The notes beneath the pieces are model-generated. The model searched no databases and had not been told where the DNA came from. It saw only the letters and a program-made list of their open reading frames with translations. From contig JBBITU010000001.1 of NCBI GenBank assembly GCA_037440605.1, positions 9,016 to 73,015 of the forward strand: a stretch of 64,000 nt of DNA, given 5' to 3'. Shown piece by piece: positions 26,051-51,701 of the stretch. Position 1 is the first letter of the stretch. Every line of letters begins with the position of its first letter. Made by a program: the position numbers and the translations under genes. Source of the DNA: Nitrospirota bacterium (GTDB taxonomy: Bacteria; Nitrospirota; Thermodesulfovibrionia; Thermodesulfovibrionales; Dissulfurispiraceae).

Positions 26051-26279
26051 TTCACCCAAAAAGTGCAATTGAATTTTTGTGTAGCAGGCATTAATACCCT
26101 CAAACCCTTTGTATTCAACGGGATTATCTCAATGCTATGCTGCAATTTGCATAATTTGTGCTGCATAAAAATATGCAGGCAGAGATTGCAGCATAGCATG
26201 TTCAGGGGGTTTCAGGACAAAGGGTTTTCGGGCATCAAAGCCTGCTTTTTCAGGACTAAACGCACTTTTTGGGTTCACC
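26051..26279. repeat. family A MITE-like element (subfamily 2)
   Basis: TTCACCCAAAAAGTGCAATT ... GCACTTTTTGGGTTCACC. It is colinear with 4342..4597. Confidence 0.8.
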
Positions 26280-27302
26280 TCTTTTAGTCCTCAATAATCT
26301 TGTCAACTCTATTTTCAAATTTGTAGCAGGGTTAACTATATCATATTTCATTAGCGCCGAAACAATAAACATAAGATGCATAAACCTGTGTTTCAATGAT
26401 GGCATTTTATCCAAAAAAATTTTGAATTCTGCTTTTGCCTCATCAAAAAAACCATTCATAAGCATATACATGGCTTTATTATAAGGGATATACTTTTTCA
26501 TCTCTTCCCAGTTTTTTCTAAGTGTTTCCTCATCATAATAAATCCCAAGCGCATGAAGTTTTTGAGAATTTTGCAAAGCAAATTCAAGTAAAAAGTTTGT
26601 TTCATTATCAAACCATGCGGTCGGCTCGATTCTTTGTGTGAGTGAATGGGAGTGCTTGCGATAATATCCAAGACAAGCTGGAATAGGTGCGAATTTACCT
26701 TCGATAGAGAGCCTTACCCATGAAGTATAATCCTGAGCAAGTCCCTTGCCCTCTATAAACCCCCCAATATTTAGCAATGCCTTCTTTTTATACATAACAG
26801 TTGAATTGATAATAAAACAAGCTCGTTCTTCCAATAATTTTTTCAGAGCAGACCCTGCAGGGGCATTGTGAGCTATGCCGGCATTTTTGGGAATGTTTAT
26901 ATAGCTTATTTTTTTTCCATTTCTATTGATTAGCCATGCCTCGCCGTAAGATAGTATTGATTCAGAATCTTTAAGAGCATTAATTTGGAGATCCAGTTTA
27001 TTTGATGTCCAATAATCATCTCCGTCAAGAGTGGCGATAAAGCCGCCATTACACATTGCAAGGGCTTTGTTAAAGGTATGTGTGAGGGCTGCAATGCCTG
27101 CGTGTTCCTGAAAGGAATATCTTATCCTGCTGTCTTTGAACCCCTTTATAATTTCCTCTGTAGCGTCTGTTGATCCATCATTTAAAATTACCCACTCCCA
27201 GTTTTGATATGTCTGATTGAGGACGCTCTGAATCGTCTGCTCAATATAGGGAGCTTGATTATATACAGGGGTTAAAATGCTTATAAGCGGTTTTTTGTTC
27301 AT
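26256..27302 (-). CDS. family 2 glycosyltransferase
   Basis: N-terminal ISILTPVYNQAPYIEQTIQSVLNQTY and DGDD motifs. The last 7 codons and the stop lie inside repeat A. Confidence 0.85.
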   Translation of the reverse strand: MNKKPLISILTPVYNQAPYIEQTIQSVLNQTYQNWEWVILNDGSTDATEEIIKGFKDSRIRYSFQEHAGIAALTHTFNKALAMCNGGFIATLDGDDYWTSNKLDLQINALKDSESILSYGEAWLINRNGKKISYINIPKNAGIAHNAPAGSALKKLLEERACFIINSTVMYKKKALLNIGGFIEGKGLAQDYTSWVRLSIEGKFAPIPACLGYYRKHSHSLTQRIEPTAWFDNETNFLLEFALQNSQKLHALGIYYDEETLRKNWEEMKKYIPYNKAMYMLMNGFFDEAKAEFKIFLDKMPSLKHRFMHLMFIVSALMKYDIVNPATNLKIELTRLLRTKRGEPKKCV

Positions 27303-27322
27303 TTATCAACTATATTATAAAT

Positions 27323-27488
27323 CCCAAATCCCGATTTAGAAATTGTCATTGCGAACCGGAGCGAAGCGAATGGGAAGCAATGACAATTTCTAACAGTAAA
27401 GATTGCCACAAACTGTTCCTTCATTTCGTTCAGGATGTTCTCGCAATGACAGCAAAGACAAGCTGTTAGCATGTCTAAATCGGGATTT
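27323..27488. repeat. family C element
   Basis: CCCAAATCCCGATTTAGAAATTGTCATTGCGAA ... GCAATGAC ... TCTAAATCGGGATTT. Confidence 0.7.
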
Positions 27489-27515
27489 AGATAAATTATA
27501 ACCCTTGCTTTTTTT

Positions 27516-27602
27516 GTCATTTCCGTGTAAACGGGAATCCAGTAATTCTAATAAAATCTGGATTCCTGCTTCCTTAAAATTCTTATTTATAAACAGGCTC
27601 TA
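27516..27602. repeat. family B fragment (right half)
   Basis: GTCATTTCCGTGTAAACGGGAATCCAG ... TATTTATAAACAGGCTCTA. Confidence 0.55.
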
Positions 27603-27624
27603 TATAGTATAATAAACTTTTCCT

Positions 27625-27767
27625 AATTAGAGTCTGTTTATAAATTACGACTATTCACCCTCCCCCAACTCCTCCCGTCAAGGGAGGGGCTTATTTAACA
27701 ACCCTCTCCCCTTGCGGGAGAGGGCAGGGGTGAGGGGGATTTTATAGTTTATAAACAGACACTAATT
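27625..27767. repeat. family B element (G-rich double-hairpin core)
   Basis: AATTAGAGTCTGTTTATAAATTACG ... TAGTTTATAAACAGACACTAATT. It is near-identical in layout to 17441..17602. Confidence 0.85.
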
Positions 27768-28007
27768 AGTATTTAATATTCTCCCTATAAAACCCTAATG
27801 TTGATTAAAGAGACGAGAAATCAGTGAGAAACTTCTTGCTATAGCTGAAACATAAAATAAGGTTAAAACCTGCTCCATTTAGAAAAAAGTTTTATTCACT
27901 TTTGTATGCCAAATCATAATCGTGTCTTTTTGCCGACTGGGCAAGGGGATATTGACTTTTAACATCGCTGAATCAATTAGAATAAATAATTTCAGAGTTA
28001 TAAACAA

Positions 28008-29249
28008 ATGAAAGAAAAAATAAAAGTCCTATTCTTCATCTCCTCCCTCGAAGGCGGAGGCGCTGAAAGGGTTATGGTCAATATTCTCAGTCATATTGAC
28101 AAAAGCAGGATTGAACCAACTCTCTCTCTATTATACCCTTATGAAAAATCCCCTTATAAAGCATTCTTGCCGGAAGAACTAAAGGTCATTGTTGTAGAAA
28201 GGAAGTCTGACAGTTTTTTTGCGAAGCTCTGGCAGCTTGTGAATTTTATCAAAACCGTTTACAGGGAGAAGCCTAATTTAATATTAAGCATGTTAACCCA
28301 CAATAACATTATGGCGCTTCTGGCAAAGAAGTTTGTCAGGACAAAGGTGATTGTCAGCGAGCATAACACTCTTGGGGAAACGATTAAGATAAAAGGCGGT
28401 AAAGAAATATTAGGTATCCCGGTAAAGCCTATGGTAAAGCTCCTCTACCCACATGCAGATATAATTATAGCTGTTTCTGAAGGAATAAAGAATAATTTAG
28501 TTGAAGAATTTCGTCTTCCAGCAAATAAAGTAAAGGTTATATATAACCCGATAGACTTAAAATATATAACTGAATTGAGCAGTATGCCCTTGAATCATCC
28601 ATTCTGGGTTTCACATCCCAAAAATACAGGTATTGTCAATAAAGATATGGAGCGTTCTTTTTTGTCTTCACAGTCTGCAAGGGTTAACCCACAGCCTGTA
28701 TCTAAACACCATATCCCGATTGTTATAGCCGTAGGCAGACTGGCTAAACAAAAAAGATTTGACATTCTTATAGAGGCATTCAGCAATGTGCTTAGTGAAA
28801 TTGATGCAAGGCTGGTCATATTGGGAGATGGAAATAAGGGAGAATTGCTCAAAAAACTGGTTGAAGACAAAGACATAGCGGGCAAGGTATCCTTTGCCGG
28901 ATTTCAGAAAAATCCCTACAATTTTTTATCTGCTTCTGATATCTTTGTTCTTTCATCGGATTATGAAGGACTGCCTATGGTGCTGCTTGAGGCAATGGCA
29001 TGCGCCACGCCTGTTATTGCAACCGACTGCAAATCAGGTCCACGGGAGATACTGAATAATGGAATGTATGGCATTCTCGTCCCAACAGGTGATGTTACTG
29101 CCATTTCAGAGGCTATAATTAACCTTCTCAAAGATAAACCATTAAGAGATAGACTTGGAAGCTTGGGGATGGAAAGGGCAGCCGATTTTTCGGCAGATAG
29201 AATCATCAGGCAATATGAAGAGATGATTTATGAATCCATTGTTGAATAA
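28008..29249 (+). CDS. family 4 glycosyltransferase (GT-B, Glycos_transf_1)
   Basis: KVLFFISSLEGGGAERV N-terminus and C-terminal SDYEGLPMVLLEAMACATPVIATD (E-x7-E region). It carries an extra ~35-aa segment before the GRL motif. Confidence 0.85.
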   Translation: MKEKIKVLFFISSLEGGGAERVMVNILSHIDKSRIEPTLSLLYPYEKSPYKAFLPEELKVIVVERKSDSFFAKLWQLVNFIKTVYREKPNLILSMLTHNNIMALLAKKFVRTKVIVSEHNTLGETIKIKGGKEILGIPVKPMVKLLYPHADIIIAVSEGIKNNLVEEFRLPANKVKVIYNPIDLKYITELSSMPLNHPFWVSHPKNTGIVNKDMERSFLSSQSARVNPQPVSKHHIPIVIAVGRLAKQKRFDILIEAFSNVLSEIDARLVILGDGNKGELLKKLVEDKDIAGKVSFAGFQKNPYNFLSASDIFVLSSDYEGLPMVLLEAMACATPVIATDCKSGPREILNNGMYGILVPTGDVTAISEAIINLLKDKPLRDRLGSLGMERAADFSADRIIRQYEEMIYESIVE

Positions 29250-29714: not shown

Positions 29715-30821
29715 ATGAAAATCCTCCAGCTCATATATGAAAGTTTTGAGAGCCCCTTCGGGTTCGGCGGGGCAGGGGTGCGGGCTTATGAGATTTATAA
29801 AAGATTAAAAGAAAGACATGACATTACCCTGCTTTGCATGAAATATCCGGGAGCAAGAGACGGTGAAATTGAGGGATTGAAACATATATTCGTTGGCGCT
29901 GATAGCAAAAACCTCACAAAAAGCGTTCTGGCTTATACAACTAAGGCAGCGGCTTTTGTCAGAAAGCAGGGCAATGATTTTGATATCATAGTAGAGAACT
30001 TTCTGCCTTCCACTCCTTTTTTTTCAAAATTTCTCTCAAAAACCCCTGTCATTTTGCAGGTTCAGGGGGTAATGGAAAAACATTCATTAAAAAAGTTTAA
30101 CCTGTTTTATTCAATTCCAATGTATCTCACCGAAAGTTTTTATCCTAAACTCTATGACAGATTCATCTTTGTATCACCCATTACAAAAGAAAAGGTAACT
30201 GCCAGTATTAAAAAAAAGAAAATACAGTCTCATGTAATACCAAACGGCATTAACAGGGAACTCCTAAGAGCTGCCCCCTATGATGGGGATTATATTCTTT
30301 TTTTTAGCAGGATAGATATTTATACAAAAGGACTTGATATTCTCATTGAGGCATTTACAAGGATAGCCTCTCAATATCCCGAAATAAGATTAATCCTTGC
30401 CGGATATGAATTCGACCGATTTGATGCACTTATATCAAATTGCCCTTCTTCTGTAAAGGATAGAATTCAATATGCAGGTTTTGTAACTGGAGAAGAAAAG
30501 GTGAGTCTATTATCAGGCGCCAAGTTAGTTGTCCTGCCCTCGCGCCATGAATCTTCACCCATAAGCATTCTTGAAGCTGCCGCCTGCGGTAAGACTGTTT
30601 TAGTAAGCGATATACCAGAAATGAGTTTTGTTCAAGAAAACGGTTTTGGATTGAGCTTTCCATCCGGTTCAGCAGATGGGCTGAGAGAAAAAATATTATT
30701 TCTGCTAAGTGATGACGAAAAAAGGAAGGTTATGGGTGAACAGGGAAAGCAGTTCTCCGCCAAGTTTTTATGGGATAATATTGCCATAAAATTTGAGAAT
30801 GTGTTAAAAAATATAATATAG
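29715..30821 (+). CDS. family 4 glycosyltransferase (GT-B)
   Basis: 368 aa. C-terminal PSRHESSPISILEAAACGKTVLVSD motif. Confidence 0.8.
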   Translation: MKILQLIYESFESPFGFGGAGVRAYEIYKRLKERHDITLLCMKYPGARDGEIEGLKHIFVGADSKNLTKSVLAYTTKAAAFVRKQGNDFDIIVENFLPSTPFFSKFLSKTPVILQVQGVMEKHSLKKFNLFYSIPMYLTESFYPKLYDRFIFVSPITKEKVTASIKKKKIQSHVIPNGINRELLRAAPYDGDYILFFSRIDIYTKGLDILIEAFTRIASQYPEIRLILAGYEFDRFDALISNCPSSVKDRIQYAGFVTGEEKVSLLSGAKLVVLPSRHESSPISILEAAACGKTVLVSDIPEMSFVQENGFGLSFPSGSADGLREKILFLLSDDEKRKVMGEQGKQFSAKFLWDNIAIKFENVLKNII

Positions 30822-31035: not shown

Positions 31036-33333
31036 GTGGGAAAGAAACAGCCTGTTAAACATGACAAAGAGAAGATTTCTTTTGTTGGTCGCATAGGCGG
31101 CAAGCCCCTTATAATCTTTTTTCTAGCCTCCGCAGCAATCCTGACCTTTATTGCCTATCTCAGGTCACTTAATGGTCCGCTCGTATTAGATGATGCTCTC
31201 TATATAAAACCTTCTGAACTGGACGACATCTGGCGAAACCTCAAATTGAAGATCCGATCTGTCTCAGTTTTTTCATTTTCATTGAACTATAATATTTCTG
31301 GAATGAATCTTGCCGGGTTTAGGATTACAAACATCATCCTGCACATTCTTTCTGCCGGACTGGCTTTTTATCTAACCTATATAACATTAACCCTGCCTTC
31401 CATTAAAGAAAGATACAAAACCCTTAATGACAGGGAAATACCACTTTATGCAGCGCTTTTTGTTGCAGTTCTCTTTGCTTTGCATCCCATACAGACCTCA
31501 GCGGTGAATTATATCACTCAAAGGATGGCAATAATGGCATCCATGTTCTCCTTTGCCGGATTAATCTTATACATTAGGGGATCACTAAACACAGGAAAAA
31601 AATCTATACTTTTTTATCTTTTCTCATCGGTCTCTTTTATACTTGCCATCTTTTCCAAGGAGAACGCAGTAATGGCAATTATCATGCTTCCTGTGTATGA
31701 TTTTATCTTTCTCTCCTCTTTGCAATGGAAAGAATTCAAAAAAAGGTTTATCCCACTCTGCGTTATTTTTGGAGCATCGGCTTTATTAGCAGCATCTGCC
31801 ATGAACGTAATGCCATTTCTAAGTCAAATAATTAAACTCGTCTTAAACCCTAATATGCCTATGGAGTGGTATGGCTGGTCAGGCAGGGACATTGACTGGA
31901 CCCCTATCGAATACTTCCTCACAGAGTTAAGGATAGTCTCAAGGTATATATTTATAATCCTTGTGCCTTTGCCTTCCTTGATGGTCTTTGATTATTCAAG
32001 TGCATTTCCTGTATCCAAGGGCCTTTTTGATCCTTTAACTACATTGTTTTCTCTATTATTTCTTTTATCAGCAATGTTTTTTTCGCTGAGGTATATTAAA
32101 AAGGCTCCACTTATCTCTTTTGGCATATTATGGTATCTTGTAACAATTTCACTTGAAAGCTTTGTCGCCCTCGGGTTAGACCCATATTTTGAGCATAGAA
32201 ACTATCTGCCGGCTTTCGGGCTTTTTTTTGCATCTGCTTCCCTGCTCATTAATGTTGATAAAATCCGTGTAGGATTAAGGAAAGAAGCGATTATTGCCTT
32301 CGCCGCCATCTTATTATTTGCTCTTACATTTGTGCGTAATGGAGTATGGGCGGATGATGAAATTCTCTGGAAGGACACCCTTGAGAAATCACCCAATAAT
32401 ACTAGAGCAATGATTGCATTAAGCAGCATCAATATCATGGAAAAGAGATTTCATGAAGCAGGGGAATATCTAAAAAGAGCGCAGGCAGCCTCGCCATCCC
32501 CTATAATCATGCCTAATATTCTATTTAATCAGGCTTCTATCTATAGGCAGACTAACAGGCGTCAGGAGTCGCTTGATATACTTAAGCAATTGGACGAAGA
32601 GAAAGCCTTTCCAAAAGGAGAAACCCGCAGTTTGGTAAGTTACCTTATAGGCGAAATTTTATGTGAACAAGGCGATTTTATTCAGGCAAGGAAATATTTT
32701 AAAAAGGCTTACCGGTGGATGCCCCAAATAGCAGATAATATTATCAACCTTGGACTCGCAAGCAGATCTCGCGGCGAGCTTGATGCGGCTGAAGGCTATT
32801 TCAAGAATGCTGTTGCAATAGCTCCTGAAAAGATTATCCCCTATGTGCAATTAGGAGAAATATATCTCGCGAAAAATGCTATATACAAGGCAGAGGAAAA
32901 ATATCAGGAGGCTATCGCAAAAAAACCGGCAGATGCAGATATCCAAAGAAGAGCATTATTCGGCATGGCTCAGATAAAATTGATAAAGGGAGATGCTGGT
33001 GAAGCAAAAAAACTTTTTCAGGAAGTCATCAAAATTACCCCTGCCTTTTATCCGCCGTATATTTTTTTAGGAAGGATACTTTTAGAAGAAAATGAACCGA
33101 AACAAGCGCTTTATCATCTTGAAAAGGCGCTTTCATTTAAAGCTTCTTTTAAAAAAAATGAACCTAACACGAAACTTTTATATTTTTATCTGGCTAATGC
33201 ATATCTCGCAATAGGAGATAACAAGTTAGCGAGGGAAAATTTGAGTATTTTTATCTCTCTGTATGAGGGAGATAAAAGGCTCGAAAAACAATATGAAAGG
33301 GCAAAGAAGGCATTGGCAAAAATCAAAGAATGA
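31036..33333 (+). CDS. GT-C-fold membrane glycosyltransferase (PMT/ArnT/TMTC-like) fused to C-terminal TPR repeats
   Basis: About 440 aa with 10 or more TM segments. First-loop acidic motif GPLVLDDALYIKPSE. About 320 aa of TPR repeats follow (repeated A..Y..A...P pattern). Confidence 0.7.
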   Translation: MGKKQPVKHDKEKISFVGRIGGKPLIIFFLASAAILTFIAYLRSLNGPLVLDDALYIKPSELDDIWRNLKLKIRSVSVFSFSLNYNISGMNLAGFRITNIILHILSAGLAFYLTYITLTLPSIKERYKTLNDREIPLYAALFVAVLFALHPIQTSAVNYITQRMAIMASMFSFAGLILYIRGSLNTGKKSILFYLFSSVSFILAIFSKENAVMAIIMLPVYDFIFLSSLQWKEFKKRFIPLCVIFGASALLAASAMNVMPFLSQIIKLVLNPNMPMEWYGWSGRDIDWTPIEYFLTELRIVSRYIFIILVPLPSLMVFDYSSAFPVSKGLFDPLTTLFSLLFLLSAMFFSLRYIKKAPLISFGILWYLVTISLESFVALGLDPYFEHRNYLPAFGLFFASASLLINVDKIRVGLRKEAIIAFAAILLFALTFVRNGVWADDEILWKDTLEKSPNNTRAMIALSSINIMEKRFHEAGEYLKRAQAASPSPIIMPNILFNQASIYRQTNRRQESLDILKQLDEEKAFPKGETRSLVSYLIGEILCEQGDFIQARKYFKKAYRWMPQIADNIINLGLASRSRGELDAAEGYFKNAVAIAPEKIIPYVQLGEIYLAKNAIYKAEEKYQEAIAKKPADADIQRRALFGMAQIKLIKGDAGEAKKLFQEVIKITPAFYPPYIFLGRILLEENEPKQALYHLEKALSFKASFKKNEPNTKLLYFYLANAYLAIGDNKLARENLSIFISLYEGDKRLEKQYERAKKALAKIKE

Positions 33334-34517: not shown

Positions 34518-34713
34518 TATTGCAATAGACGAATGATAAGCGGTTTACCAGCAGCTATCATTAACGGCTGCCGTATGGCACACAATGATTTTTTGATAAA
34601 AAGGAGGTGATTAGGCAAAGAAGGGAGGGATTATTCAGGTTTTTCCGTTTTTGTCCGTTCTTAGCCATTGGCTAAGTTAAGACCAAGCAGTTAATTTAAA
34701 AGGAGGTTCGAAA

Positions 34714-35688: not shown

Positions 35689-35713
35689 ATTGATCTCATT
35701 ATGAGAGTTTTAA

Positions 35714-35744
35714 AAAGGGATGGGCTTGCCCATCCCTTTTTTTA
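35714..35744 (+). terminator. rho-independent terminator
   Basis: GGGATGGG-CTTG-CCCATCCC followed by TTTTTTT. Confidence 0.8.
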
Positions 35745-35765
35745 GTTACTTAAGGAGGCTTGTTA

Positions 35766-39128: not shown

Positions 39129-39164
39129 TCCGTAAGCTGATATTTGAAATATAATTTTGATGAA

Positions 39165-41779: not shown

Positions 41780-41838
41780 AGGGGTTTCGGGCATCCATCA
41801 CTGCTTTTTGAGATCTAAACACATTTTTTAGGTTAAGC
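41780..41838. repeat. 3-prime fragment of family A
   Basis: GGGGTTTCGGGCATCCATCACTGCTTTTTGAGATCTAAACACATTTTTTAGGTTAAGCC. Confidence 0.5.
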
Positions 41839-42080
41839 CGCAAGTTAGAGAGCCATCCCATGCTGACAGCTAATTATCTCTCACCTCCTTTCCATGTCCA
41901 TTCAAATTTGTTCACCCGCTCTTGTTAGAATCTGTTTACCAATACTACTTCATCACACTCCCGTCGAGGGATAGGATAATCTAAAATCTCATATTGCGGG
42001 AGAGCCTGACTGTGCGTTGCACTCTGACAGGGGCGATGGTGAGTGGGATTTTAGGCAAATTATCAACAGCCTATACTTAA

Positions 42081-42109
42081 TTTATATCACAAAAGAATGG
42101 GGAGGTCAA
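42081..42109 (-). promoter_or_regulatory. near-consensus sigma-70 promoter with extended -10 (TTGACC-17-TGaTATAAA)
   Basis: The minus strand reads TTGACC TCCCCATTCTTTTGTGA TATAAA. It lies 9 nt downstream of the stop of 42118..44100 and about 440 nt upstream of the ATG at 41631. Confidence 0.5.
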
Positions 42110-45178: not shown

Positions 45179-47476
45179 ATGAGTAAGAGAATCTTTGGGG
45201 TAAGGACAGCCATGAGCTTTCTTGCAGGCATAATACTGCTTATAGCATTTACAGTCTTGACTGTATCTGGGGCTTATGGAGTGATTACAGAACAACAAAA
45301 GACACCGTTTAAGATCCTCAATGCCGTTGCCTCCGGTCAGCCTTACGATATTATTGTTCTTTTTGATGACACTATCATTAAAAGCAAGGCTGATGCAATG
45401 CGCCGGGATATCGGAGTTTACCACGACACACCTGAAATACTCAAAATGAAAGAGTCAGAATACGCTTCTCTGAAACGAAAAGTTACAGGATTTCTTCCTG
45501 CAGGAGAACAACAATCCATAAAGGAATACAGTCATCTTCCTATGACTTTTATGAGGGTGATGAGCATAGAAAGTCTTACGAAGCTTTTGAATATGCCTGA
45601 GGTAGTTAGAGTATATGAGAACAGGATCAGATACCCGGTTTTTTCTTCCAGTATTCCTTTCATTAACAAGCCTCAGGTGGCAGCGCTTAATATGAAAGGG
45701 GCTGAAACTGCAATTGTGGTGCTTGATACAGGGCTTAAATATAGCAACTCAGCCTTTGGCATCTGCTCTGGCGCTAATAAACCTGCTGATTGCTGTCCTG
45801 GAGGCGATTGCAATACTGCCCCACCTTTTGCTCCACGAGACTGTAATGTTGCATGTGTTCATAATTTTGCGCCAAATGATGGACAGCCTGACGCTGACGG
45901 ATATGGGACTAATGCTGCAAGCATTGTTGTTGGTGTTGCCCCTGATACAAAGGTTATAGGTCTCGATGTCTTTACAGATGCAGGCGCCTATGACTCTGAC
46001 ATAATCGCTGCAATCAACTGGTCTATAGCTAAAAAGGCAGCTTATAATATCGTCGCCATTAATATGAATTTTGGTGACGGCATTAAATACACTTCACAAT
46101 GTCCTGATGACTCTTTGGCATCTTCTATAAGTAGCGCCAGAGCTGCCGGGATATTATCTGTTATTGCAGCAGGGAATGAAAACTATACGAATGGTCTTTC
46201 CTCGCCTGCCTGTGTTCCTGATGCAATCTCTGTAGGTGCCGTGTATGAATCGAATATAGGAGGAGTAAGCTATTCCAACTGCACCGATTCGACCACAGCA
46301 GCGGACAAGGCAGCCTGCTTTTCTAACAGCGCTGACTATCTGAGCATATTAGCTCCGGGTTCTTATATGACTGCGTCAGGGTTTGCCATGCTTGGAACTT
46401 CACATGCCGCTGCTTACATAGCAGGCTCGATTGCGGTTTTGCGCGGGCAAAATGCCTTCCCTTCAGAGACTATAAATCAAACCGCTGCCAGATTGACCAA
46501 TACAGAAGTCTTTGTGCTCGACCAAAAAAGCGGCATCACCAAGCCAAGGGTTAATCTCCTCTCAGCAGTTAGTGCAGCCGAGGCTGAATTCTCCATTTCG
46601 GGCATAGTGCTATCTGGAACCACTCCACTTTACGGAGTTACTATGACCTTGAGCGGAGCAGCATCTGCAACTGCTATAACAAACCGTATGGGCAGTTACA
46701 GCTTCACAGGTCTTGGAAATGGCAGCTATACCGTGACTCCATCAAAGGCAGGGTTTGTCTTTGGTCCACAATACAAAAGCATTACGATAGAAAATTCAAA
46801 TATGCCTGATATAAACTTCGAAGCAACAGGCAGCGGCGGGTGCACATACACAATCTCACCCAAGAGCCAATCATTCACAACAGGAGGCGGCAGCGGCAGT
46901 GTGGCAGTTGCAGCAGGCGCTGGCTGTGCATGGACAGCAGTGAGTAATGCTGCATGGATTACTATTACAGGAGGCAGCAGCGGGAGCGGAAATGGAACAG
47001 TTAACTATTATGTTTCATCAAACACAGGTTCAGCAAGAACAGGGACGATGACAATTGCAAAACAGACATTCTCTGTTAGTCAGTCTGGGACAGGAGGCTC
47101 TTTATTGCCAGACCTCATAGTAACCTCCGTTCTTGCGCCGAGGGGCTGGGACAACAATGTGCAAGGGACAGTTACGGTAGCGATAAAAAATATTGGAAGC
47201 AATGCCGCAGGCGCCTTTAAGGTAAAGGGATACTTCTCTGTCGATCAGATACCAAATAACGGAGGGACGCCCAAAGATTCTCTCCTCTTCACATGGTATG
47301 TGACAGGCGGACTTGCCGCGGGTCAGACAAGGAGTCGGACATTTACTTGTTCTTTTAGTGGTTTCCCAATCCATGCATCCTATTATGTTGTCGTCAAGGT
47401 TGATTCTGACAATCAGGTGTCAGAGAGCAATGAATCTAACAATGTAAAAACTTATCTTGTTAATGTATCAAGATAA
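45179..47476 (+). CDS. subtilisin-like (S8) protein with atypical catalytic site, followed by CarboxypepD_reg-like, BACON-like and CARDB domains
   Basis: N-terminal anchor/signal. S8 motifs VVLDTG (D183), GYGTNAASIVVG where HGTHVAG is expected (Y242), AAGNEN, and GTSHAAAYIAG (S408). Then SISGIVLSG...GSYTVTPSKAGF, then GCTYTISP...CAWTAVSNAAWITI, then the CARDB tail. Confidence 0.8.
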   Translation: MSKRIFGVRTAMSFLAGIILLIAFTVLTVSGAYGVITEQQKTPFKILNAVASGQPYDIIVLFDDTIIKSKADAMRRDIGVYHDTPEILKMKESEYASLKRKVTGFLPAGEQQSIKEYSHLPMTFMRVMSIESLTKLLNMPEVVRVYENRIRYPVFSSSIPFINKPQVAALNMKGAETAIVVLDTGLKYSNSAFGICSGANKPADCCPGGDCNTAPPFAPRDCNVACVHNFAPNDGQPDADGYGTNAASIVVGVAPDTKVIGLDVFTDAGAYDSDIIAAINWSIAKKAAYNIVAINMNFGDGIKYTSQCPDDSLASSISSARAAGILSVIAAGNENYTNGLSSPACVPDAISVGAVYESNIGGVSYSNCTDSTTAADKAACFSNSADYLSILAPGSYMTASGFAMLGTSHAAAYIAGSIAVLRGQNAFPSETINQTAARLTNTEVFVLDQKSGITKPRVNLLSAVSAAEAEFSISGIVLSGTTPLYGVTMTLSGAASATAITNRMGSYSFTGLGNGSYTVTPSKAGFVFGPQYKSITIENSNMPDINFEATGSGGCTYTISPKSQSFTTGGGSGSVAVAAGAGCAWTAVSNAAWITITGGSSGSGNGTVNYYVSSNTGSARTGTMTIAKQTFSVSQSGTGGSLLPDLIVTSVLAPRGWDNNVQGTVTVAIKNIGSNAAGAFKVKGYFSVDQIPNNGGTPKDSLLFTWYVTGGLAAGQTRSRTFTCSFSGFPIHASYYVVVKVDSDNQVSESNESNNVKTYLVNVSR

Positions 47477-47671
47477 ACTTAAAAGCCACAGAAACATAGC
47501 GGGACATCCTTTTTGGTTGTTGACTAAAAAATTTGACTGCCAAGACGCCTGTCCTGCTTATATTTTTATACCCAAAACCCTCATGCCGACAAGTCCGGAT
47601 ATTCAAAGCGATTATTTTTGTTGGTTTTTCTGCCCTATATTCTCAATCCCTTAAGGAATATTATTTTTTAC

Positions 47672-48466
47672 ATGAAGGCTCTGCTCTTAAATCTGTTCAG
47701 TGGAAGATACATTCTTAAAACTATGGTCATCAAAGACCTGAAGGCAAGATATGCTGGATCTGTCTTTGGTCCTCTTTGGCTGATTACAACCCCTCTTTAT
47801 CAAATATTCCTCTACACATTTCTTTTTTCTACAATAATGAAGGTGCGCTTTGAGGAAGATGCGGGGACATCATCTTTTGTAGTTTATCTGCTTGCCGGAT
47901 TAATCCCATGGCTTTTTTTTTCTGAGGCGACTATAAGGGGAATCTCAGCCTTTAATGATAACGCCCATATCATAAAGAAAGTGAAATTTCCAATGGAGGT
48001 ATGCATAGCCTCTGTGATTATCTCATCTGCCATTACCTTTTTTGTATATCTCGTATTTTATTTAGCAATGCTTGTAGTAACCGGGTTTCTAAAAATTAAT
48101 ACCGCTCCATTATTCATATTGCCATTTCTGATACAAGTGCTTCTGATATCGGGACTTTCGTTAGGACTGGGAAGCATTGCTGTCTTTTTTAGGGATATCA
48201 CTCAGATAACCACCATGGCTCTTAACCTTTTTTTCTTTCTCACCCCCATTGTTTATCCCCCTTCGGCGATTCCCCAGAATGTCAGGTGGGTTTTTGATAT
48301 CAATCCCTTTTACTTTATCGTAGAGATGTATCGCAATGTCCTTATCAAAGGTATATTACCAACTCCGGTTTCAGTTTTATATCCTTCTATTGCGGCTGTG
48401 GTAATATTTTTTGCTGGCTATTATATTTTCACTAAGACAAAAGAAGCATTCAAAGATATACTGTAA
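47672..48466 (+). CDS. wzm: ABC-2 type polysaccharide export permease (Wzm/TagG-like)
   Basis: IKDLKARYAGSVFGPLWLI... signature start of ABC-2 permeases, with 6 TM segments. The ATG at 47672 is chosen over the track start at 47618. Confidence 0.8.
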   Translation: MKALLLNLFSGRYILKTMVIKDLKARYAGSVFGPLWLITTPLYQIFLYTFLFSTIMKVRFEEDAGTSSFVVYLLAGLIPWLFFSEATIRGISAFNDNAHIIKKVKFPMEVCIASVIISSAITFFVYLVFYLAMLVVTGFLKINTAPLFILPFLIQVLLISGLSLGLGSIAVFFRDITQITTMALNLFFFLTPIVYPPSAIPQNVRWVFDINPFYFIVEMYRNVLIKGILPTPVSVLYPSIAAVVIFFAGYYIFTKTKEAFKDIL

Positions 48467-49644
48467 TGAAAGACATCGTAGTTAAGGCTGAGAACCTTAT
48501 AAAAGAATATCATATTTATGACAAGCCTCTTGAAAGGCTTAAAGAGCTATTTTTTAGTAAAAAGTATCATAGGGTTTTCAGGGCATTAGGACCTCTAAAT
48601 ATTGAGGTGTATAAAGGTGAAGCCTTGGGTATCATTGGGGAAAACGGCGCTGGTAAGAGCACTTTCCTGAAACTCGCCGCAGGAGTTATAGAACCTTCCG
48701 CTGGGACAATTTCTGTAAAAGGGAAAGTCTCCTCCATACTGGAACTCGGCACAGGTTTCAATCCTGAATTCACAGGAAGGGAGAATGTAGTTCTCAATGG
48801 TGCGCTTCTTGGGCTTTCTACATCTGAGATAAACAAGAGGATTGAAAAAATAGAAAGGTTTACCGATATCGGAGAGTTTTTTGATATGCCTGTAAAGACA
48901 TATTCATCTGGGATGTATATGAGGCTTGCCTTTTCCCTCGCCGTCCATGTTGATGCAGAAATAGTAGTAATAGACGAGGTGCTCGCTGTAGGGGATGGCA
49001 TCTATGAAAAGAAGTGCATTGACAGGATATGGGACCTGAGGAGGGCAGGTGTTACTATACTTTTCTGCTCACATTCTCTTTACACTGTTGCAAACTTTTG
49101 TGACAAGGTTATCTGGCTTTGTGAAGGAATTACCCGGGCTGTCGGAGAGACAAAAAATGTGATCTCAAAATATGAAGATTACCTTAGAGAAAAGGAAAAA
49201 AAAGAGATTGATGAAAAATCTGTTCTGATTATAAACGGCAAGAGGGTGGCAGAAATAAAGGGAGTAAGTCTTATTTTAAACGGTAAAACTGTAGAGTCTT
49301 CTATCCCGCATGCATCAGACCTCATAGCAACCCTCGAGTTCGAGATTAATGATGATTCTGATGTTCATGTAGGCTTTGCGGTTGACAGGAATGACGGATT
49401 GTGCTGCTTTGCAGACAGTATGGAAAAACAAAAACTATCACCTTTCCGGGGTCCCGGAAGGGTGAGCATTGCCCTTAAATTCAAGAATCTCCCTCTTTTG
49501 GGAGGCATATACAAGATAGTGTTCTTTTTGCTTGATGAAACAGGTATTTGTATTTTTGATAGAAAAGAATCATCTTTTTTCAAGATTGATACGAAGGAAA
49601 AGAAGTGGGGGGTATGCCATCTCGACTATGAGTGGGAAAAATGA
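48466..49644 (+). CDS. wzt: polysaccharide export ABC ATPase with C-terminal Wzt_C-like carbohydrate-binding extension
   Basis: Walker A GENGAGKST, signature YSSGMYMRLAF, Walker B IVVIDE. An extra ~150-aa beta-rich C-terminal domain follows. Confidence 0.8.
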   Translation: MKDIVVKAENLIKEYHIYDKPLERLKELFFSKKYHRVFRALGPLNIEVYKGEALGIIGENGAGKSTFLKLAAGVIEPSAGTISVKGKVSSILELGTGFNPEFTGRENVVLNGALLGLSTSEINKRIEKIERFTDIGEFFDMPVKTYSSGMYMRLAFSLAVHVDAEIVVIDEVLAVGDGIYEKKCIDRIWDLRRAGVTILFCSHSLYTVANFCDKVIWLCEGITRAVGETKNVISKYEDYLREKEKKEIDEKSVLIINGKRVAEIKGVSLILNGKTVESSIPHASDLIATLEFEINDDSDVHVGFAVDRNDGLCCFADSMEKQKLSPFRGPGRVSIALKFKNLPLLGGIYKIVFFLLDETGICIFDRKESSFFKIDTKEKKWGVCHLDYEWEK

Positions 49645-50738
49645 TGTTATCTGTTGTGATTGTTAATCATAATAGTTCTGATCTTTTGAAGGATTGCCTC
49701 ACTTCTATTATTTCAACAAATGTGAGTGTGCCATTTGAGTTTGTAATAGTGGACAGTGGCTCAAATGAAAATGATGTTAGAGATATTCTCTCACTTGAGG
49801 CTGACAATGTTAAGGTGAGCATAAACAAGGAAAATATAGGCTATGCGATGAGTGTTAATCAGGGAGTAAAAGCAGCAAAGGGCGATATTATTCTCATCAG
49901 CAATCCTGACATAATCTATAGAGCAAACAGCTTAAATATTATGATTTCTGCGCTTTCAGAATTGCCCCGTTGCGGGGCTGTTGGACCTAAGACTTGGTGG
50001 AATAAGGGCATGACCTTTCTCCTTCCTGTAAGCGAAATTATTACTCCATACTGGCTTATAAGGGCTGAGCTAATGAGAATTTCCTCTTTTGCAAGAGATA
50101 AAATACTGAAAGGCTGGATCAGAAAAAATTTGAAATACTTGCTCTCGCAGAAACCCATTCAGCAGGAAATGCTCTCAGGTGCCTGTATTATGATAAAGAG
50201 AGAGATTTTTGAGAGTCTGGGTGGTTTTGACGGTTCTTTTCGGCTATATTTTGAGGACACAGACTTGTGTCTGAGGGTGCAGAAGGCAGGATATCGTCTT
50301 TATATGCTGCCTGAAGCTAAAATTATTCATTACTATAATCAAAGTGCAAAACAGGACAAAGAAACTTCCAATAAAAAATATGAAGCCTCAATGATCAGAT
50401 ATATGGAAAAACATTTTAAAGAAAAGCTCCTTATACCTCAAATTATACAGAGATTTCTAAAAAAACGAAGTGAGGCATCTTTCAACTGGGAATATAGAGG
50501 AAATTTTAGAGATACAACACCTGATTTTACATTTCACGATAACTCTGAGAAGCTTTTTCTGCTCTCTCCTGTGGAATCCCTTATTCCATCGGCATGTTCC
50601 TTCTTTAATGATGCTGCCTTTGCCATTCCTGCTGACCTTTGGGAAATCTTAGGGGAAGGAAGATACTTTGCTAAGGCATTTAACCTCCACACCCTGAAGA
50701 GTTATGGTTCATGGTGTTGGGATAAGCGTAATCATTGA
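49641..50738 (+). CDS. family 2 glycosyltransferase
   Basis: LSVVIVNHNSSDLLKDCLTSI, SNPD and FEDTDLCLR motifs (rhamnosyltransferase-like GT2). It has an ATGA overlap with wzt. Confidence 0.85.
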   Translation: MMLSVVIVNHNSSDLLKDCLTSIISTNVSVPFEFVIVDSGSNENDVRDILSLEADNVKVSINKENIGYAMSVNQGVKAAKGDIILISNPDIIYRANSLNIMISALSELPRCGAVGPKTWWNKGMTFLLPVSEIITPYWLIRAELMRISSFARDKILKGWIRKNLKYLLSQKPIQQEMLSGACIMIKREIFESLGGFDGSFRLYFEDTDLCLRVQKAGYRLYMLPEAKIIHYYNQSAKQDKETSNKKYEASMIRYMEKHFKEKLLIPQIIQRFLKKRSEASFNWEYRGNFRDTTPDFTFHDNSEKLFLLSPVESLIPSACSFFNDAAFAIPADLWEILGEGRYFAKAFNLHTLKSYGSWCWDKRNH

Positions 50739-50750
50739 TACATATCTAAC

Positions 50751-51701
50751 ATGCTCAATATAAGAGAATTTAAAGATAGCGATGAATTGGGTATAAGATC
50801 TCTATTTGTTACCTGCTTTGGAAAAGAACTCTCACACGGTGAATGGCACTGGAAATACAAAGAATCTCCGTGGGGAGCAACTGCATCTATAGCCATGGAT
50901 AACGAAGAAATAATCGCCCATTATGGCGGGCTCAGAGCAAAGTTTTTTTATCAGGATAAAATATTTGATGCTTTGCAGCCTTGCGATGTCATGACACATC
51001 CCAAATTCAGGGCGCGGATATTTTCCAAAAGAGGCGCTATGGTAAAGGCTGGTGAGCATTTTTATAGCAATAATCATATGGATTTTGCTTTTGGCTTCCC
51101 ATCCGAAAGGCATGCCATACTTGGAACAAAACAACTCGGCTATACTGAGCATAGATATATTACGGTCTTGAGAAAAAGCGCAGCGGGATTAAAAAAGACC
51201 CTCATATTGCCCGAAAAAGTTCAGAAAGGATGGGATTCTATCAGCGCAAAAGAGATTGATTCGATATGTAAGGAAGTAAAGGGGACCGCAGGGCTTACCA
51301 TCATTAAAGACAGCCATTATCTATTTTGGCGGTATAGAGATAACCCTATAAGGCGCTACTTGCCGCTTATGGTGAGAACCTGGCTCAGAAATAAACTCAA
51401 GGCTTTTGTCATAATTTCTTTCAGGGATTCTGAGTTGCTTATTCAGGATTTTTTTCATACAGATGCAATAGATATAAAAAATCTTTTCAAGCTTTTAGAA
51501 AAGATAGCTCTTGAGCATAGGCTGCAAAGCATAGTTGCATGGGTCAATCCTAATGAACCCGTCTTTAAGGCATTTATTGATTATGGTTTTGTAGCTGACA
51601 AAGGAATACCATACCTTTTCAGGGTTATCAATGCTGAGGTGCGAGAGGAATTTCTCTTCAATAATTACTGCTACAGAATGGGTGACTACGACTCAAGCTG
51701 A
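50751..51701 (+). CDS. GNAT-fold acyl/acetyltransferase-like protein
   Basis: 316 aa. N-terminal IREFKDSDELGIRSLF pattern typical of GNAT proteins. The assignment is weak. Confidence 0.45.
   Translation: MLNIREFKDSDELGIRSLFVTCFGKELSHGEWHWKYKESPWGATASIAMDNEEIIAHYGGLRAKFFYQDKIFDALQPCDVMTHPKFRARIFSKRGAMVKAGEHFYSNNHMDFAFGFPSERHAILGTKQLGYTEHRYITVLRKSAAGLKKTLILPEKVQKGWDSISAKEIDSICKEVKGTAGLTIIKDSHYLFWRYRDNPIRRYLPLMVRTWLRNKLKAFVIISFRDSELLIQDFFHTDAIDIKNLFKLLEKIALEHRLQSIVAWVNPNEPVFKAFIDYGFVADKGIPYLFRVINAEVREEFLFNNYCYRMGDYDSS

Follow-up and report, generated by a model that had tools for sequence, protein, structure and literature searches.

The Geobacillus stearothermophilus NRS 2004/3a slg cluster codes for the S-layer protein SgsE, the fusion enzyme WsaE, a Wzm/Wzt exporter, and the oligosaccharyltransferase WsaB. 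The A-layers of Aeromonas salmonicida and Aeromonas hydrophila consist of VapA or AhsA, have an S-layer-specific secretin (SpsD, coded next to vapA in A. salmonicida), and are tethered to LPS O-antigen; Caulobacter RsaA is also tethered on O-antigen. Tannerella forsythia has a two-protein glycosylated S-layer of large proteins (TfsA and TfsB) with T9SS C-terminal domains and a general O-glycosylation system. S-layer genes have long leaders, and the leader of the highly expressed cry3A gene of Bacillus thuringiensis carries an mRNA stabilizer, STAB-SD. Export of E. coli O8/O9a-type O-polysaccharides uses Wzm, a Wzt with a carbohydrate-binding C-terminal domain, and a methyl cap added by WbdD. 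Where characterized, GT-C/TPR and YfhO enzymes move single sugars from lipid-phosphate donors. TMTC1-4 and PMT are protein O-mannosyltransferases of the GT-C/PMT clan, and uncharacterized prokaryotic homologues of the TMTC-like GT-C plus TPR proteins have already been noted (PMC7801869). YfhO-family GT-C enzymes glycosylate LTA in B. subtilis and Listeria (PMC5836110), and the streptococcal members PgtC2/PgfM are proven protein O-glycosyltransferases (PMC12041528). Finally, mela_00855 of Methylomirabilis lanthanidiphila, another uncultured diderm, is a 31.6-kDa exported and highly transcribed S-layer protein with no known homologues, which is coded beside glycosyltransferase genes and on which no glycans were detected (PMC8671808).

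The locus described here lies in the window, a 64,000-nucleotide stretch of Nitrospirota DNA (Table 1). The best explanation includes that the core of the block (∼29.7 to 50.7 kb) is a cell-envelope module kept in Thermodesulfovibrionales-type Nitrospirota. This conserved surface-protein and glycan module is plausibly S-layer-like, and we give roughly even chances to its specifying an S-layer-like protein layer coupled to an exported glycan.

Table 1. Features of the surface-protein and glycan block, in window coordinates
Feature	Coordinates	Strand	Basis or remarks
IS110 transposase gene	24736-25815		Pfam
Variable edge of block	26256..29249	both	GT2 and GT4 separated by MITE-like repeats
GT2 at variable edge	26256-27302	-	Not conserved in related clusters
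GT4 at variable edge	28008-29249	+	Pfam; not conserved in related clusters
GT4 glycosyltransferase	29715..30821	+	Pfam Glycos_transf_1 and Glyco_transf_4
TMTC-like membrane glycosyltransferase	31036..33333	+	N-terminal GT-C fold, C-terminal TPR repeats
Promoter P1 of gene A	34388-34416	+	TTGACA-17-TATAAT, 12/12 sigma70
Promoter P2 of gene A	34489-34517	+	TTGACA-17-TACAAT, 11/12 sigma70
Conserved 5' leader of gene A	34524..34713	+	Comparison of family-A loci
Anti-SD-complementary 11-mer AAGGAGGTGAT in gene A leader	34601-34611	+	
Protein A gene	34714..35688	+	Sec signal peptide, cleavage after SHA; GTG start
Intrinsic terminator of gene A	35712..35746	+	13-bp stem, U7; directly after gene A
Small exported protein (103 aa)	35760..36071	+	Synteny conserved
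FG-GAP beta-propeller lipoprotein	36068..37303	+	Lipobox LYGC; Pfam; synteny conserved
Small lipoprotein (131 aa)	37300..37695	+	Lipobox FAGC; synteny conserved
Exported Big_7 + CARDB protein	38100..39128	+	Pfam
Methyltransferase (395 aa)	39357..40544	+	Uncharacterized N-terminal half, Methyltransf_23; kept beside B
Strong hairpin, likely bidirectional terminator	40571..40609	.	Between convergent methyltransferase and B genes
Protein B gene	40624..41631	-	Sec signal peptide, cleavage after AQA
Promoter/leader region of gene B	41632..42109	-	Promoter-like sites
GT4 glycosyltransferase-SAM methyltransferase fusion	42118..44100	-	Pfam; synteny conserved
Radical SAM/SPASM enzyme	44101..45072	-	Found in most related clusters
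Exported S8 subtilase-like + CarboxypepD_reg + BACON + CARDB protein	45179..47476	+	Pfam
Wzm (ABC-2 permease)	47618..48466	+	Pfam; synteny conserved
Wzt ATPase with C-terminal Wzt_C carbohydrate-binding domain	48466..49644	+	Pfam; synteny conserved
GT2 glycosyltransferase	49632..50738	+	Pfam; conserved after Wzt
GNAT-like acetyltransferase	50751..51701	+	Pfam; not conserved in related clusters

An earlier, sequence-only reading of this DNA had proposed two secreted proteins of no recognizable family and a novel structural family. Both proteins, A and B, do have signal peptides, and they match nothing in Pfam, NCBIfam, PHROGs, PADLOC, or PDB sequences. Mature protein A (32.2 kDa, pI 4.4) has four invariant cysteines, including a C-x-E-x-E-x-C motif, and mature protein B (34.2 kDa, pI 4.8) is modeled by AlphaFold as two beta-sandwich domains (pLDDT 92.6). 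Both families are acidic (pI 4.1 to 5.0) and very low in lysine, and they align by hhalign over 287 columns (probability 98.4%, E 1e-14), which makes A and B divergent paralogues within a single undescribed family. Neither has a known S-layer anchoring module (SLH, CWB2, RTX, CTD, or PEP/IPTL-CTERM), which counts against the S-layer-like reading; in P0075, a fusion joins a B-like domain to a Cys-repeat and CARDB module, which counts for it.

Foldseek finds no global match for the two-beta-sandwich model (TM <0.25 in the PDB and ≤0.25 in BFVD), and the best of the weak resemblances are to proteins that bind or process carbohydrates and to lectins of the tandem beta-jelly-roll type (Pleurotus lectin 6t1d, PNGase F, tandem CBM22, and ColG binding domains). 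These resemblances would suit a reading in which A and B are secreted to bind glycan like lectins, or to process it, with the exported polymer as their target, and form no lattice; they might, for example, organize or remodel an exopolysaccharide or biofilm matrix, and the cluster would be an ordinary polysaccharide locus with accessory proteins. We consider this unlikely. It would agree with the many invariant charged and aromatic residues, including a DDREEID loop, with B orthologues being 55 to 70% identical, which is above what is usual for S-layer proteins and counts against the S-layer-like reading, and with distant multicopy relatives of 400 to 1,200 aa that resemble repeat adhesins. 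However, TM scores below 0.25 are not a real fold match, most homologues in other phyla stand alone without polysaccharide genes, and a dedicated, very strong promoter, a putatively stabilizing leader, and a monocistronic layout point to stoichiometric, structural amounts.

Gene A had been described, together with gene B, as strongly promoted and monocistronic; with 12/12 and 11/12 promoters, an AAGGAGG Shine-Dalgarno sequence ahead of its start, and its own terminator, gene A conforms to that description. In all seven family-A loci, a promoter scoring 11-12/12 with a spacer of 17 nt lies 247 to 326 nt upstream of the start, a combination present in 0.7% of random 400-nt windows; P2 is kept in position and sequence in all seven, and P1 has counterparts in L010, L048, and L049. 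The leader, ∼200 to 300 nt long across loci, is 71% identical between loci versus 32 to 47% for the proteins, and it has a second GGGAGGG besides AAGGAGGTGAT, a hairpin (CTTAGCC-ATTG-GGCTAAG), and no Rfam family matches; one leader hairpin of the family-A genes shows compensatory changes. All eight occurrences of AAGGAGGTGAT in the 846 kb of DNA examined are in family-A upstream regions, 102 to 122 nt ahead of the start. Gene B fits the description too, with promoter-like sites and, in common with the methyltransferase gene that converges on it, a strong hairpin. Its candidate promoter, assigned by eye, is TTGACC-17-(TGa)TATAAA at 42109-42081, matched in its orthologues by TTGACA-17-TGnTA in the corresponding place; a scanning tool additionally marks 41900-41873 and 41777-41750, and an SD-like AAGGAGGTGAGAGAT lies in the leader at 41890-41876. 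We read A and B, from these sequence signals, as each being a probable high-output transcription unit, and the signals are consistent with a product made in very large amounts. High expression finds no support in codon usage, which counts against abundance: relative to the ribosomal-protein genes of the window, A (0.654) and B (0.662) have the lowest codon adaptation indices, and codon bias genome-wide is slight.

Elsewhere in the Nitrospirota/Thermodesulfovibrionales, at least eight further loci also link these proteins to glycosylation genes (L001, L007, L008/L012, L009, L010, L011, L048, and L049). The first six share the order A, small, FG-GAP, small, CARDB, (YfhO), methyltransferase, B, followed by GT4-methyltransferase, (radical SAM), S8/CARDB, Wzm, Wzt, and GT2. 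In L048 and L049 the order is GT4, GT-C/TPR, (PIG-L), A, FG-GAP, small, CARDB, YfhO, methyltransferase, and radical SAM, so that a GT4 gene precedes the GT-C/TPR gene there too and the latter is directly upstream of the family-A gene. Related loci often add YfhO or PMT_2 GT-C enzymes, PIG-L, or a lone secretin; in L007, L008, L009, L010, L048, and L049, a YfhO gene (930 to 990 aa) separates the CARDB gene from the methyltransferase gene, and the secretin adjoins the cluster in L001, L010, and L049. The window has no secretin, YfhO, PIG-L, WaaL, or Wzy_C-type transferase, which counts against an S-layer-like reading. Linkage is partial in strain NaphS2 (L042) and a few further MAGs (L038, L039, and L041), and the expected co-occurrence does not extend to ∼25 homologues at greater distance, from Acidobacteriota, Desulfobacterota, and other groups, which stand alone with no glycan genes within 10 kb.

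Across the related genomes the conserved core corresponds to 29.7/31.0 to 50.7 kb of the window, and its gene order is kept at 32 to 78% protein identity in at least eight other genomes, which indicates vertical inheritance and selection for linkage. The same synteny largely refutes a chance neighborhood or a horizontally acquired, repeat-bounded island in which the secreted proteins are unrelated to the glycan genes, a reading that we regard as very improbable. An island would be in keeping with the direct repeats (24171-24402 and 27302-27488) that bracket the IS110 transposase and GT2 genes and with the numerous intergenic MITE-like repeats at 26 to 34 kb, but repeats of the same kind occur throughout the window, including outside the block, and the G+C content of the block is that of its flanks. 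The repeat arrays proposed to bound the block are not borne out: TRF detects no arrays, and the repeats are copies of a dispersed MITE-like element of a genome-wide type plus an IS110. The core of this element, GTCTGTTTATAAAC, has 20 copies across the window (among them at 1.9, 17.4, 22.4, 27.6, 29.5, and 33.5 to 34.0 kb, partly outside the block), and the repeats do not delimit the block.

The exported accessory set listed by the sequence-only reading (the FG-GAP lipoprotein, two small exported proteins, the Big_7 and CARDB protein, and the S8 multidomain protein) is present in full. The Big_7 protein, whose gene is followed by a terminator at 39162-39187, shares its C-terminal 123-aa CARDB module with the S8-like protein at 87% identity. 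The catalytic His of the S8-like protein is replaced by Tyr in the present copy (TAT, 45902-45904), a point against the S8-like protein having its usual part in the S-layer-like model. The glycan set had been called complete. Its GT2, two GT4, GT4-methyltransferase, methyltransferase, radical SAM/SPASM, GNAT, Wzm, and Wzt genes are all there, the last with a Wzt_C domain (36.8 bits against a Pfam cutoff of 30.4); completeness itself does not stand, since a Pfam scan of window ORFs of at least 100 aa, short of the last few ribosomal-protein-operon ORFs at 61.9 to 64 kb, shows no initiating phosphoglycosyltransferase, nucleotide-sugar genes, or WaaL or Wzy_C-type ligase. The proposed en-bloc route of the Geobacillus type is not supported at the same point: the WsaB/PglL (Wzy_C) oligosaccharyltransferase that it needs is missing from the window and from the Pfam lists of the six related loci with Pfam annotation (L001, L007, L008, L009, L048, and L049).

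For the membrane glycosyltransferase, Pfam detects only the TPR repeats, with the PMT, PMT_2, and DUF1736 models below threshold. AlphaFold models residues 1 to 455 with a pLDDT of 84, and the top Foldseek/PDB matches are solely GT-C enzymes (ArnT, Pmt1/2, STT3, Pmt4, ALG3, and Emb; probability 1.00), with ArnT the nearest solved structure; model and search confirm the GT-C/TPR fusion first suggested from the sequence. Hydropathy and the positive-inside rule give ∼13 transmembrane helices, and the TPR repeats are probably periplasmic. More than 771 homologues were found, and D52-D53 in loop 1 is invariant in 31 homologues; S207-K208-E209 and E386-R388-N389-Y390 are also invariant.

What the GT-C enzymes modify bears on a further alternative, possible but tentative, in which the A/B layer is held noncovalently by a lipid-linked, O-antigen-like Wzm/Wzt glycan and the proteins are unglycosylated. 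The polymer would be joined to lipid A-core, or to a different lipid, by a ligase coded elsewhere, and the targets of the GT-C enzymes would be glycan or lipid A, which ArnT modifies, and not proteins. Such a tether would be like that of Caulobacter RsaA to O-antigen or of Aeromonas VapA to LPS. LPS machinery is present (LptE at 15122-15691), Wzt_C is characteristic of O-polysaccharide exporters that recognize the capped end of a chain, and both the missing oligosaccharyltransferase and the lone secretins of relatives, which bring to mind SpsD beside vapA, are in line with such an anchor. However, waaL is not seen within 64 kb, the TPR fusion and the kept place of the GT-C/TPR gene directly upstream of gene A suggest a protein substrate, and a protein O-glycosyltransferase role is possible for YfhO-type enzymes (PMC12041528).

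In the S-layer-like model, A and B would be the major subunits of a protein layer on the outer surface, with leaders that carry a ribosome-binding decoy sequence and probably stabilize the mRNA. The co-conserved FG-GAP propeller and small lipoprotein and the two CARDB-tail proteins may serve layer assembly or anchoring. The layer would be functionally coupled to a probably methyl-capped glycan, made in the cytoplasm by the GT4-methyltransferase, methyltransferase, and GT2 enzymes and then passed out through Wzm/Wzt. Sugars from lipid-phosphate donors may be added to proteins or glycan by GT-C enzymes that face the periplasm, here the TMTC-like GT-C/TPR protein and in relatives YfhO and PMT_2; because GT-C/TPR and YfhO enzymes, where characterized, transfer single sugars, the Wzm/Wzt polymer may have a lipid as its final carrier and serve to anchor the proteins, not to decorate them.

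Like slg, this locus places a structural surface-protein gene beside an ABC-transporter-dependent glycan pathway with a glycosyltransferase-methyltransferase fusion and Wzm/Wzt. It differs in its diderm host, in the absence from the window of a WsaB-type (Wzy_C) O-oligosaccharyltransferase, the WsaP initiator, and rml genes, in having GT-C/TPR, YfhO, and PMT_2 enzymes as candidate transferases, and, compared with SgsE by gene content, in having two small paralogous proteins and not one large SLH-type protein. Two co-encoded surface proteins, a diderm host, and implicated glycosylation genes recall Tannerella, whose large subunits, T9SS C-terminal domains, and general O-glycosylation system are all absent here. 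Compared by description, A and B are like mela_00855 in being exported proteins of similar size with no known homologues, coded near glycosyltransferase genes in a diderm, but they lack its IPTL-CTERM sorting signal. By gene type, O8/O9a export is a parallel for the Wzm, the Wzt_C-bearing Wzt, and the methyltransferases, which could provide a chain cap, although the window has no WecA or WaaL and the cluster is embedded among surface-protein genes. The GT-C/TPR enzyme shares with TMTC1-4 and PMT the GT-C fold, a DD motif in the first extracytoplasmic loop, a KE motif, and a C-terminal TPR array, but it is bacterial and, on its model, a putative transferase. The YfhO enzymes of the related loci would act at the outer face of the inner membrane with a lipid-P-sugar donor, as in the described systems, although their hosts are diderm Nitrospirota and the gene is absent from the window. 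As in the cry3A STAB-SD, the gene A leader has a perfect anti-SD complement that lies well ahead of the start and has no start codon of its own behind it; by this analogy it is a putative stabilizer, in a Nitrospirota host and with conserved hairpins added. Neither A nor B resembles VapA or RsaA in sequence (PDB and Pfam give no match), and compared with the Aeromonas and Caulobacter systems the window has no secretin, the subunits are smaller (32 to 34 kDa) and paired, and there are extra GT-C enzymes. Features shared with these systems are the diderm host, a strong promoter ahead of a long 5' leader, a homopolymer-type glycan pathway adjoining the structural gene, and, in the related loci L001, L010, and L049, a neighboring lone secretin; the Sec signal peptide on the subunit is shared with Aeromonas.

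The block at 26256-51701 had been proposed as a candidate surface-glycoprotein island, and an ORF listing with Pfam and NCBIfam scans of the window bears out almost all of the gene calls made in that sequence-only reading, although the "repeat arrays" and the "complete" glycan set were overstated. Gene content and synteny show the core of the block to be a predicted lineage-conserved envelope module. It couples the paralogous, exported, and probably very highly expressed proteins A and B to lipoproteins and CARDB proteins, and also to a predicted Wzm/Wzt glycan pathway that includes methyltransferases, and to between one and three putatively periplasm-facing GT-C enzymes. Housekeeping genes lie on both sides, with AmiC, an amidohydrolase, LptE, holA, purB, fab genes, and a sigma54 two-component pair on one flank, and hemerythrin, coaD, and a ribosomal-protein/SecY/RpoA operon on the other. 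Close homologues with named sources indicate that the DNA is from a Nitrospirota bacterium of the Thermodesulfovibrionales type. We note that a baeRF family 10 gene, coding for a bacterial eRF1-like protein, is present amid housekeeping genes at 17686-18867 and is unrelated to the surface-protein finding.

Genes of the block and sites of the dispersed repeat (window coordinates)
Feature	Position	Strand	Basis
GT2	26256-27302	-	Pfam/NCBIfam
GT4	28008-29249	+	Pfam/NCBIfam
GT4	29715-30821	+	Pfam/NCBIfam
Membrane protein with C-terminal TPRs (GT-C/TPR)	31036-33333	+	Pfam (TPRs)
Protein A, no family	34714-35688	+	ORF; no Pfam/NCBIfam match
Small exported protein	35760-36071	+	
FG-GAP lipoprotein	36068-37303	+	
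Small lipoprotein	37300-37695	+	
Big_7 + CARDB	38100-39128	+	
Methyltransferase	39357-40544	+	
Protein B, no family	40624-41631	-	ORF; no Pfam/NCBIfam match
GT4 + methyltransferase fusion	42118-44100	-	
Radical SAM/SPASM	44101-45072	-	
S8 + CarboxypepD_reg + BACON + CARDB	45179-47476	+	
Wzm	47618-48466	+	
Wzt with Wzt_C	48466-49644	+	
GT2	49632-50738	+	
GNAT	50751-51701	+	
MITE-like repeat sites (examples of 20)	1872, 17445, 22440, 24455, 27632, 29490, 33510-34011, 51926-52221		

BLASTP finds no similarity between proteins A and B, but their apparent unrelatedness is overturned by profile-profile comparison of the two families (probability 98.4%, E 1e-14, 287 columns), in which alone the relationship is visible, and their sequence profiles indicate that they are paralogues of one family. 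The two alignments have in common a mature N-terminus (A-V-x-G-[IV]-x-D-x-V-P...V-P) and a C-terminal motif, (N/T)-W-D-x-I. Both proteins have signal peptides and very little Lys, with mature forms of 32.2 kDa and pI 4.4 (A) and 34.2 kDa and pI 4.8 (B), and the acidic character extends throughout both families. Family A has four invariant cysteines (C44, C105, C239, and C245 in the window protein), including a C-x-E-x-E-x-C motif, and the family B alignment has none. The cluster also conserves a radical SAM/SPASM gene, whose product may modify either protein A or a sugar.

Database homologues number 19 for A and 71 for B, all metagenomic, and the same contigs can carry both. The structural protein family had been described as apparently novel, and this holds: A and B have no match in Pfam, NCBIfam, PHROGs, or PADLOC, and the family profiles match nothing among PDB sequences. 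The Pfam/NCBIfam scans also find no S-layer anchoring or sorting modules (SLH, CWB2, RTX/T1SS, T9SS CTD, or PEP/IPTL-CTERM) in A or B, and neither has a C-terminal hydrophobic tail. In an exhaustive HMM search of 1.84 billion representative proteins, 630 match at E<=1e-3, of which 58 reach E<=1e-30. Some of the matches are longer proteins in which the first domain is repeated several times and no Pfam domain is present, and the distant multi-domain relatives have no informative Pfam domain. The A/B family is real, moderately large, and undescribed. An AlphaFold model of B (pLDDT 92.6, pTM 0.89) has two beta-sandwich domains with no global Foldseek match in PDB or BFVD (all TM <= 0.25). The matches amount to low-TM beta-sandwich noise; a phage-tail or capsid origin is rejected. 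The model weakly resembles tandem jelly-roll lectins and carbohydrate-binding modules and has one local match to TM1070. The main non-structural alternative to a surface layer is that A and B are lectin or matrix proteins. Small orphan S-layer proteins do exist in uncultured diderms, as exemplified by mela_00855 (PMC8671808).

Look-ups of gene context, together with a tblastn matrix comparing every cluster protein with 49 loci, reveal a core order of A, small protein, FG-GAP protein, small lipoprotein, CARDB protein, (YfhO), methyltransferase, B, GT4-methyltransferase, (radical SAM/SPASM), S8/CARDB protein, Wzm, Wzt, and GT2, which is kept in related loci from other genomes (L001/L002, L007, L008, which is the same as L012, L009, L010, and L011) at protein identities of 32 to 78%. 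In two further loci, L048 and L049, GT-C/TPR orthologues (57 to 61% identical) are encoded directly upstream of a family-A gene (BLASTP E values against A of 1e-53 and 8e-55), with a GT4 gene ahead of them, an arrangement also seen in the window. Relatives also carry a YfhO-family GT-C (six loci), a PMT_2 GT-C (L008 and L049), PIG-L, and a lone secretin, none of which is present in the window. The secretin is of the GspD type and is encoded at the cluster edge with a PIG-L deacetylase gene (L001, 16884-18698; L010, 19929-21008; L049, 4168-6648), with no other T2SS genes nearby in these three loci, and it may serve A and B proteins as a dedicated route out through the outer membrane.

Outside Nitrospirota, linkage is partial in the cultured strain NaphS2 (PIG-L-GT2, Wzt, radical SAM, GT4, and methyltransferase genes at L042), as it is in L038, L039, and L041. 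Some 25 homologues at 36 to 42% identity, from Thermoanaerobaculia, Holophagales, other Acidobacteriota, and Desulfobacterota MAGs, are stand-alone, as is a 54%-identical homologue (L005); the stand-alone homologues have no conserved neighbors, and clustering yielded only spurious high-GC ORFs. Family-B genes are present in two to three copies per genome in several phyla, as in NaphS2, whose two B-like genes (L042 and L044) lie on contigs ADZZ01000764 and ADZZ01000765, and in two MAGs (L014, L039, and L040 in one; L018 and L046 in the other). Given the core synteny in relatives, the secreted proteins are linked to glycosylation genes within the lineage, and a lack of conserved linkage holds for the distant relatives only.

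The block is not, however, a bounded island. The repeats at 24.2-26.3 and 51.8-52.2 kb, initially taken for bounding arrays, are copies of a dispersed MITE-like element, and Tandem Repeats Finder identifies no arrays; searches of the window for tandem repeats, tRNAs, and Rfam families found nothing. The element core, GTCTGTTTATAAAC, occurs in 20 copies across the window where 0.03 are expected, both far outside the block and between its genes, often as head-to-head units around G-rich palindromes such as CCCTCTCCCGCAAGGGGAGAGGG or TTCCCGCGAAGGCGGGAATCC. Many intergenic spacers are filled by these repeats, and the 1.4-kb gap before gene A consists mostly of three to four copies. An IS110-family transposase gene is located at 24736-25815, and direct repeats at 24171-24402 and 27302-27488 (∼140 nt in total in two blocks, 83% identical) bracket it together with the first GT2 gene, which suggests that the variable edge of the cluster has undergone a local rearrangement or insertion. 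Because the repeats are dispersed window-wide, the IS110 gene lies at that edge, and the G+C content of the block is that of its flanks, the block has no island boundaries, and a mobile-island reading is rejected from the synteny in relatives and the repeat distribution.

Gene A had been called strongly promoted and monocistronic, and both descriptions hold. Its two promoters lie in tandem, score 12/12 and 11/12, and each have a 17-nt spacer; the Shine-Dalgarno sequence is strong, and a perfect intrinsic terminator comes directly after the stop codon. An 11-12/12 promoter is located 247 to 326 nt upstream in all seven distinct family-A loci, a score reached by 0.7% of random 400-nt windows, and the family-A leaders are 71% identical in DNA, compared with 32 to 47% identity among the proteins. 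The gene A leader (34524-34713), with counterparts upstream of the family-A genes in L001, L006, L007, L010, L048, and L049, contains at 34601-34611 the 11-mer AAGGAGGTGAT, which is perfectly complementary to the 3' end of 16S rRNA, is common to the family-A leaders, and has no conserved start codon after it. All eight copies of AAGGAGGTGAT in 846 kb (both strands) sit 102 to 122 nt upstream of a family-A start. The leader also has two conserved hairpins, one of which, downstream of the 11-mer, keeps its pairing through three compensatory changes in L007, and it has no Rfam match. Leaders with a decoy Shine-Dalgarno sequence, such as STAB-SD of cry3A, are typical of extremely abundant proteins, S-layer proteins included, as are long leaders carrying tandem promoters. 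By analogy, the family-A leader is possibly an mRNA-stabilizing, STAB-SD-like element.

Family-B leaders of the cluster loci have an SD-like element similar to the family-A 11-mer, RGGRGGTGAGA, 90 to 257 nt upstream of the start (41876-41890 in the window; equivalent positions in L001, L007, L008, L009, and L011), and a conserved TTGACA-17-TGnTA promoter, assigned by eye, just after the GT4-methyltransferase stop; stand-alone homologues in other phyla lack this arrangement. The near-consensus promoters, conserved leader, and terminator argue for a high predicted output of A. Codon usage lends no support, as the codon adaptation index against the window's ribosomal-protein genes is lowest in the window for A and B, and the codon bias of the genome is very small.

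Among the accessory proteins, the C-terminal 123-residue CARDB modules of the Big_7 and S8-like proteins (38760-39125 and 47105-47473) are 87% identical, far more than the remaining parts of the two proteins, which suggests either gene conversion or a common docking function. In addition, a metagenomic protein, P0075, has a B-like domain fused to a Cys-repeat and CARDB module, and the CARDB tail common to several proteins could be a docking module. The S8-like protein has an incomplete Asp-His-Ser subtilase (peptidase S8) triad in this genome, with the catalytic His replaced by Tyr (TAT, 45902-45904) and D183 and the GTS serine intact; its L001 and L007 orthologues retain the His, and it is possible that the protein is a pseudo-protease or that the change is a recent mutation or a sequencing error.

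The GT-C fold and TPR fusion proposed for the 31036-33333 product is well founded, with Pfam detecting the TPRs alone. When a profile of its homologues was run against PDB sequences, TPR matches drowned out all others and told nothing about the membrane domain, which was assigned instead by structure prediction. The AlphaFold model of the N-terminal 455 residues (pLDDT 84.3, pTM 0.88) has 11 top Foldseek/PDB matches that are all GT-C (probability 1.00, TM 0.33 to 0.47), including ArnT, Pmt1/Pmt2, STT3, Pmt4, ALG3, AftA, and Emb. This region has >771 homologues, mostly from Nitrospirota and Acidobacteriota MAGs, some with the JGI name protein O-mannosyltransferase, with invariant D52-D53 (31 homologues), S207-K208-E209, and E386/R388/N389/Y390. 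Hydropathy and the positive-inside rule, as an indication only, would place the N-terminus inside and the C-terminus outside with 13 TM helices, suggesting that the TPRs are periplasmic, on the extracytoplasmic side. Members of the bacterial family number in the hundreds to thousands, and we know of no function assigned to it. D52 and D53 form an acidic DD motif in the first extracytoplasmic loop, and both motif and GT-C plus TPR architecture are the same as those described for TMTC1-4, for which full-length, uncharacterized prokaryotic homologues have already been noted (PMC7801869).

The glycan export genes are well supported (ABC2_membrane of Wzm, 72.9 bits; ABC_tran of Wzt, 67.1 bits; Wzt_C, 36.8 bits against a cut-off of 30.4), and the two methyltransferase domains of the cluster may be chain-terminating modifiers of the glycan. 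The set is not complete, as the window has no initiating phosphoglycosyltransferase or nucleotide-sugar genes and no WaaL/Wzy_C ligase among the ORFs scanned within its 64 kb; WaaL may be encoded elsewhere in the genome.

The chances that A and B form an S-layer-like surface layer appear to us evenly balanced. O-antigen tethers a surface layer in Caulobacter and Aeromonas, and by analogy the Wzm/Wzt polymer could be an O-antigen-like tether for the proteins, with the lone secretin of relatives fitting the Aeromonas model. Alternatively, A and B proteins could receive single sugars from the GT-C/TPR and YfhO enzymes, as proteins in streptococci do from YfhO relatives (PMC12041528), although adjacency to glycosyltransferase genes is no proof of glycosylation, as the mela_00855 case illustrates (PMC8671808). 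We regard as rather improbable the joint reading that A/B proteins are a new class of small two-beta-sandwich surface-lattice proteins across Nitrospirota, Acidobacteriota/Thermoanaerobaculia, Desulfobacterota, and Methylomirabilota, are in Thermodesulfovibrionales the natural substrates of TMTC-like GT-C/TPR and diderm YfhO enzymes, and have genes driven by a new anti-Shine-Dalgarno-decoy leader RNA.

If true, the joint reading would provide the first substrate and function for bacterial TMTC homologues, as well as a new S-layer architecture. A surface layer would by itself yield a concrete candidate substrate for these glycosyltransferases, a protein family and domain arrangement without a solved or annotated relative, and a conserved leader RNA that is maybe useful as a high-expression element. 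It would also identify the main surface proteins of Thermodesulfovibrionales, which are widespread and barely cultured anaerobes, with A/B relatives in Acidobacteriota and sulfate reducers; NaphS2, a cultured sulfate reducer with family-B genes, is a possible experimental model. Should there be no such layer, it would still be worthwhile to annotate the locus as what it is, a conserved and well-defined envelope module.

The sequence-only reading had likened the block to the Geobacillus slg cluster, and its interpretation is partly supported, in that family novelty and lineage linkage stand but en-bloc glycan transfer lacks support. Wzm/Wzt and a glycosyltransferase-methyltransferase fusion are common to both, at the domain level only. 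In contrast, slg has a WsaB-type transferase, an initiator, and nucleotide-sugar genes, none of which is in this window, and the defining WsaB/PglL-type (Wzy_C) O-oligosaccharyltransferase is absent both from the scanned window ORFs and from the Pfam lists of the related loci. The locus is of a known kind, in which surface-protein genes are coupled to an ABC-transporter glycan pathway, and what is new here is an undescribed subunit family, GT-C-type instead of Wzy_C-type transferases, and a distinctive leader RNA.
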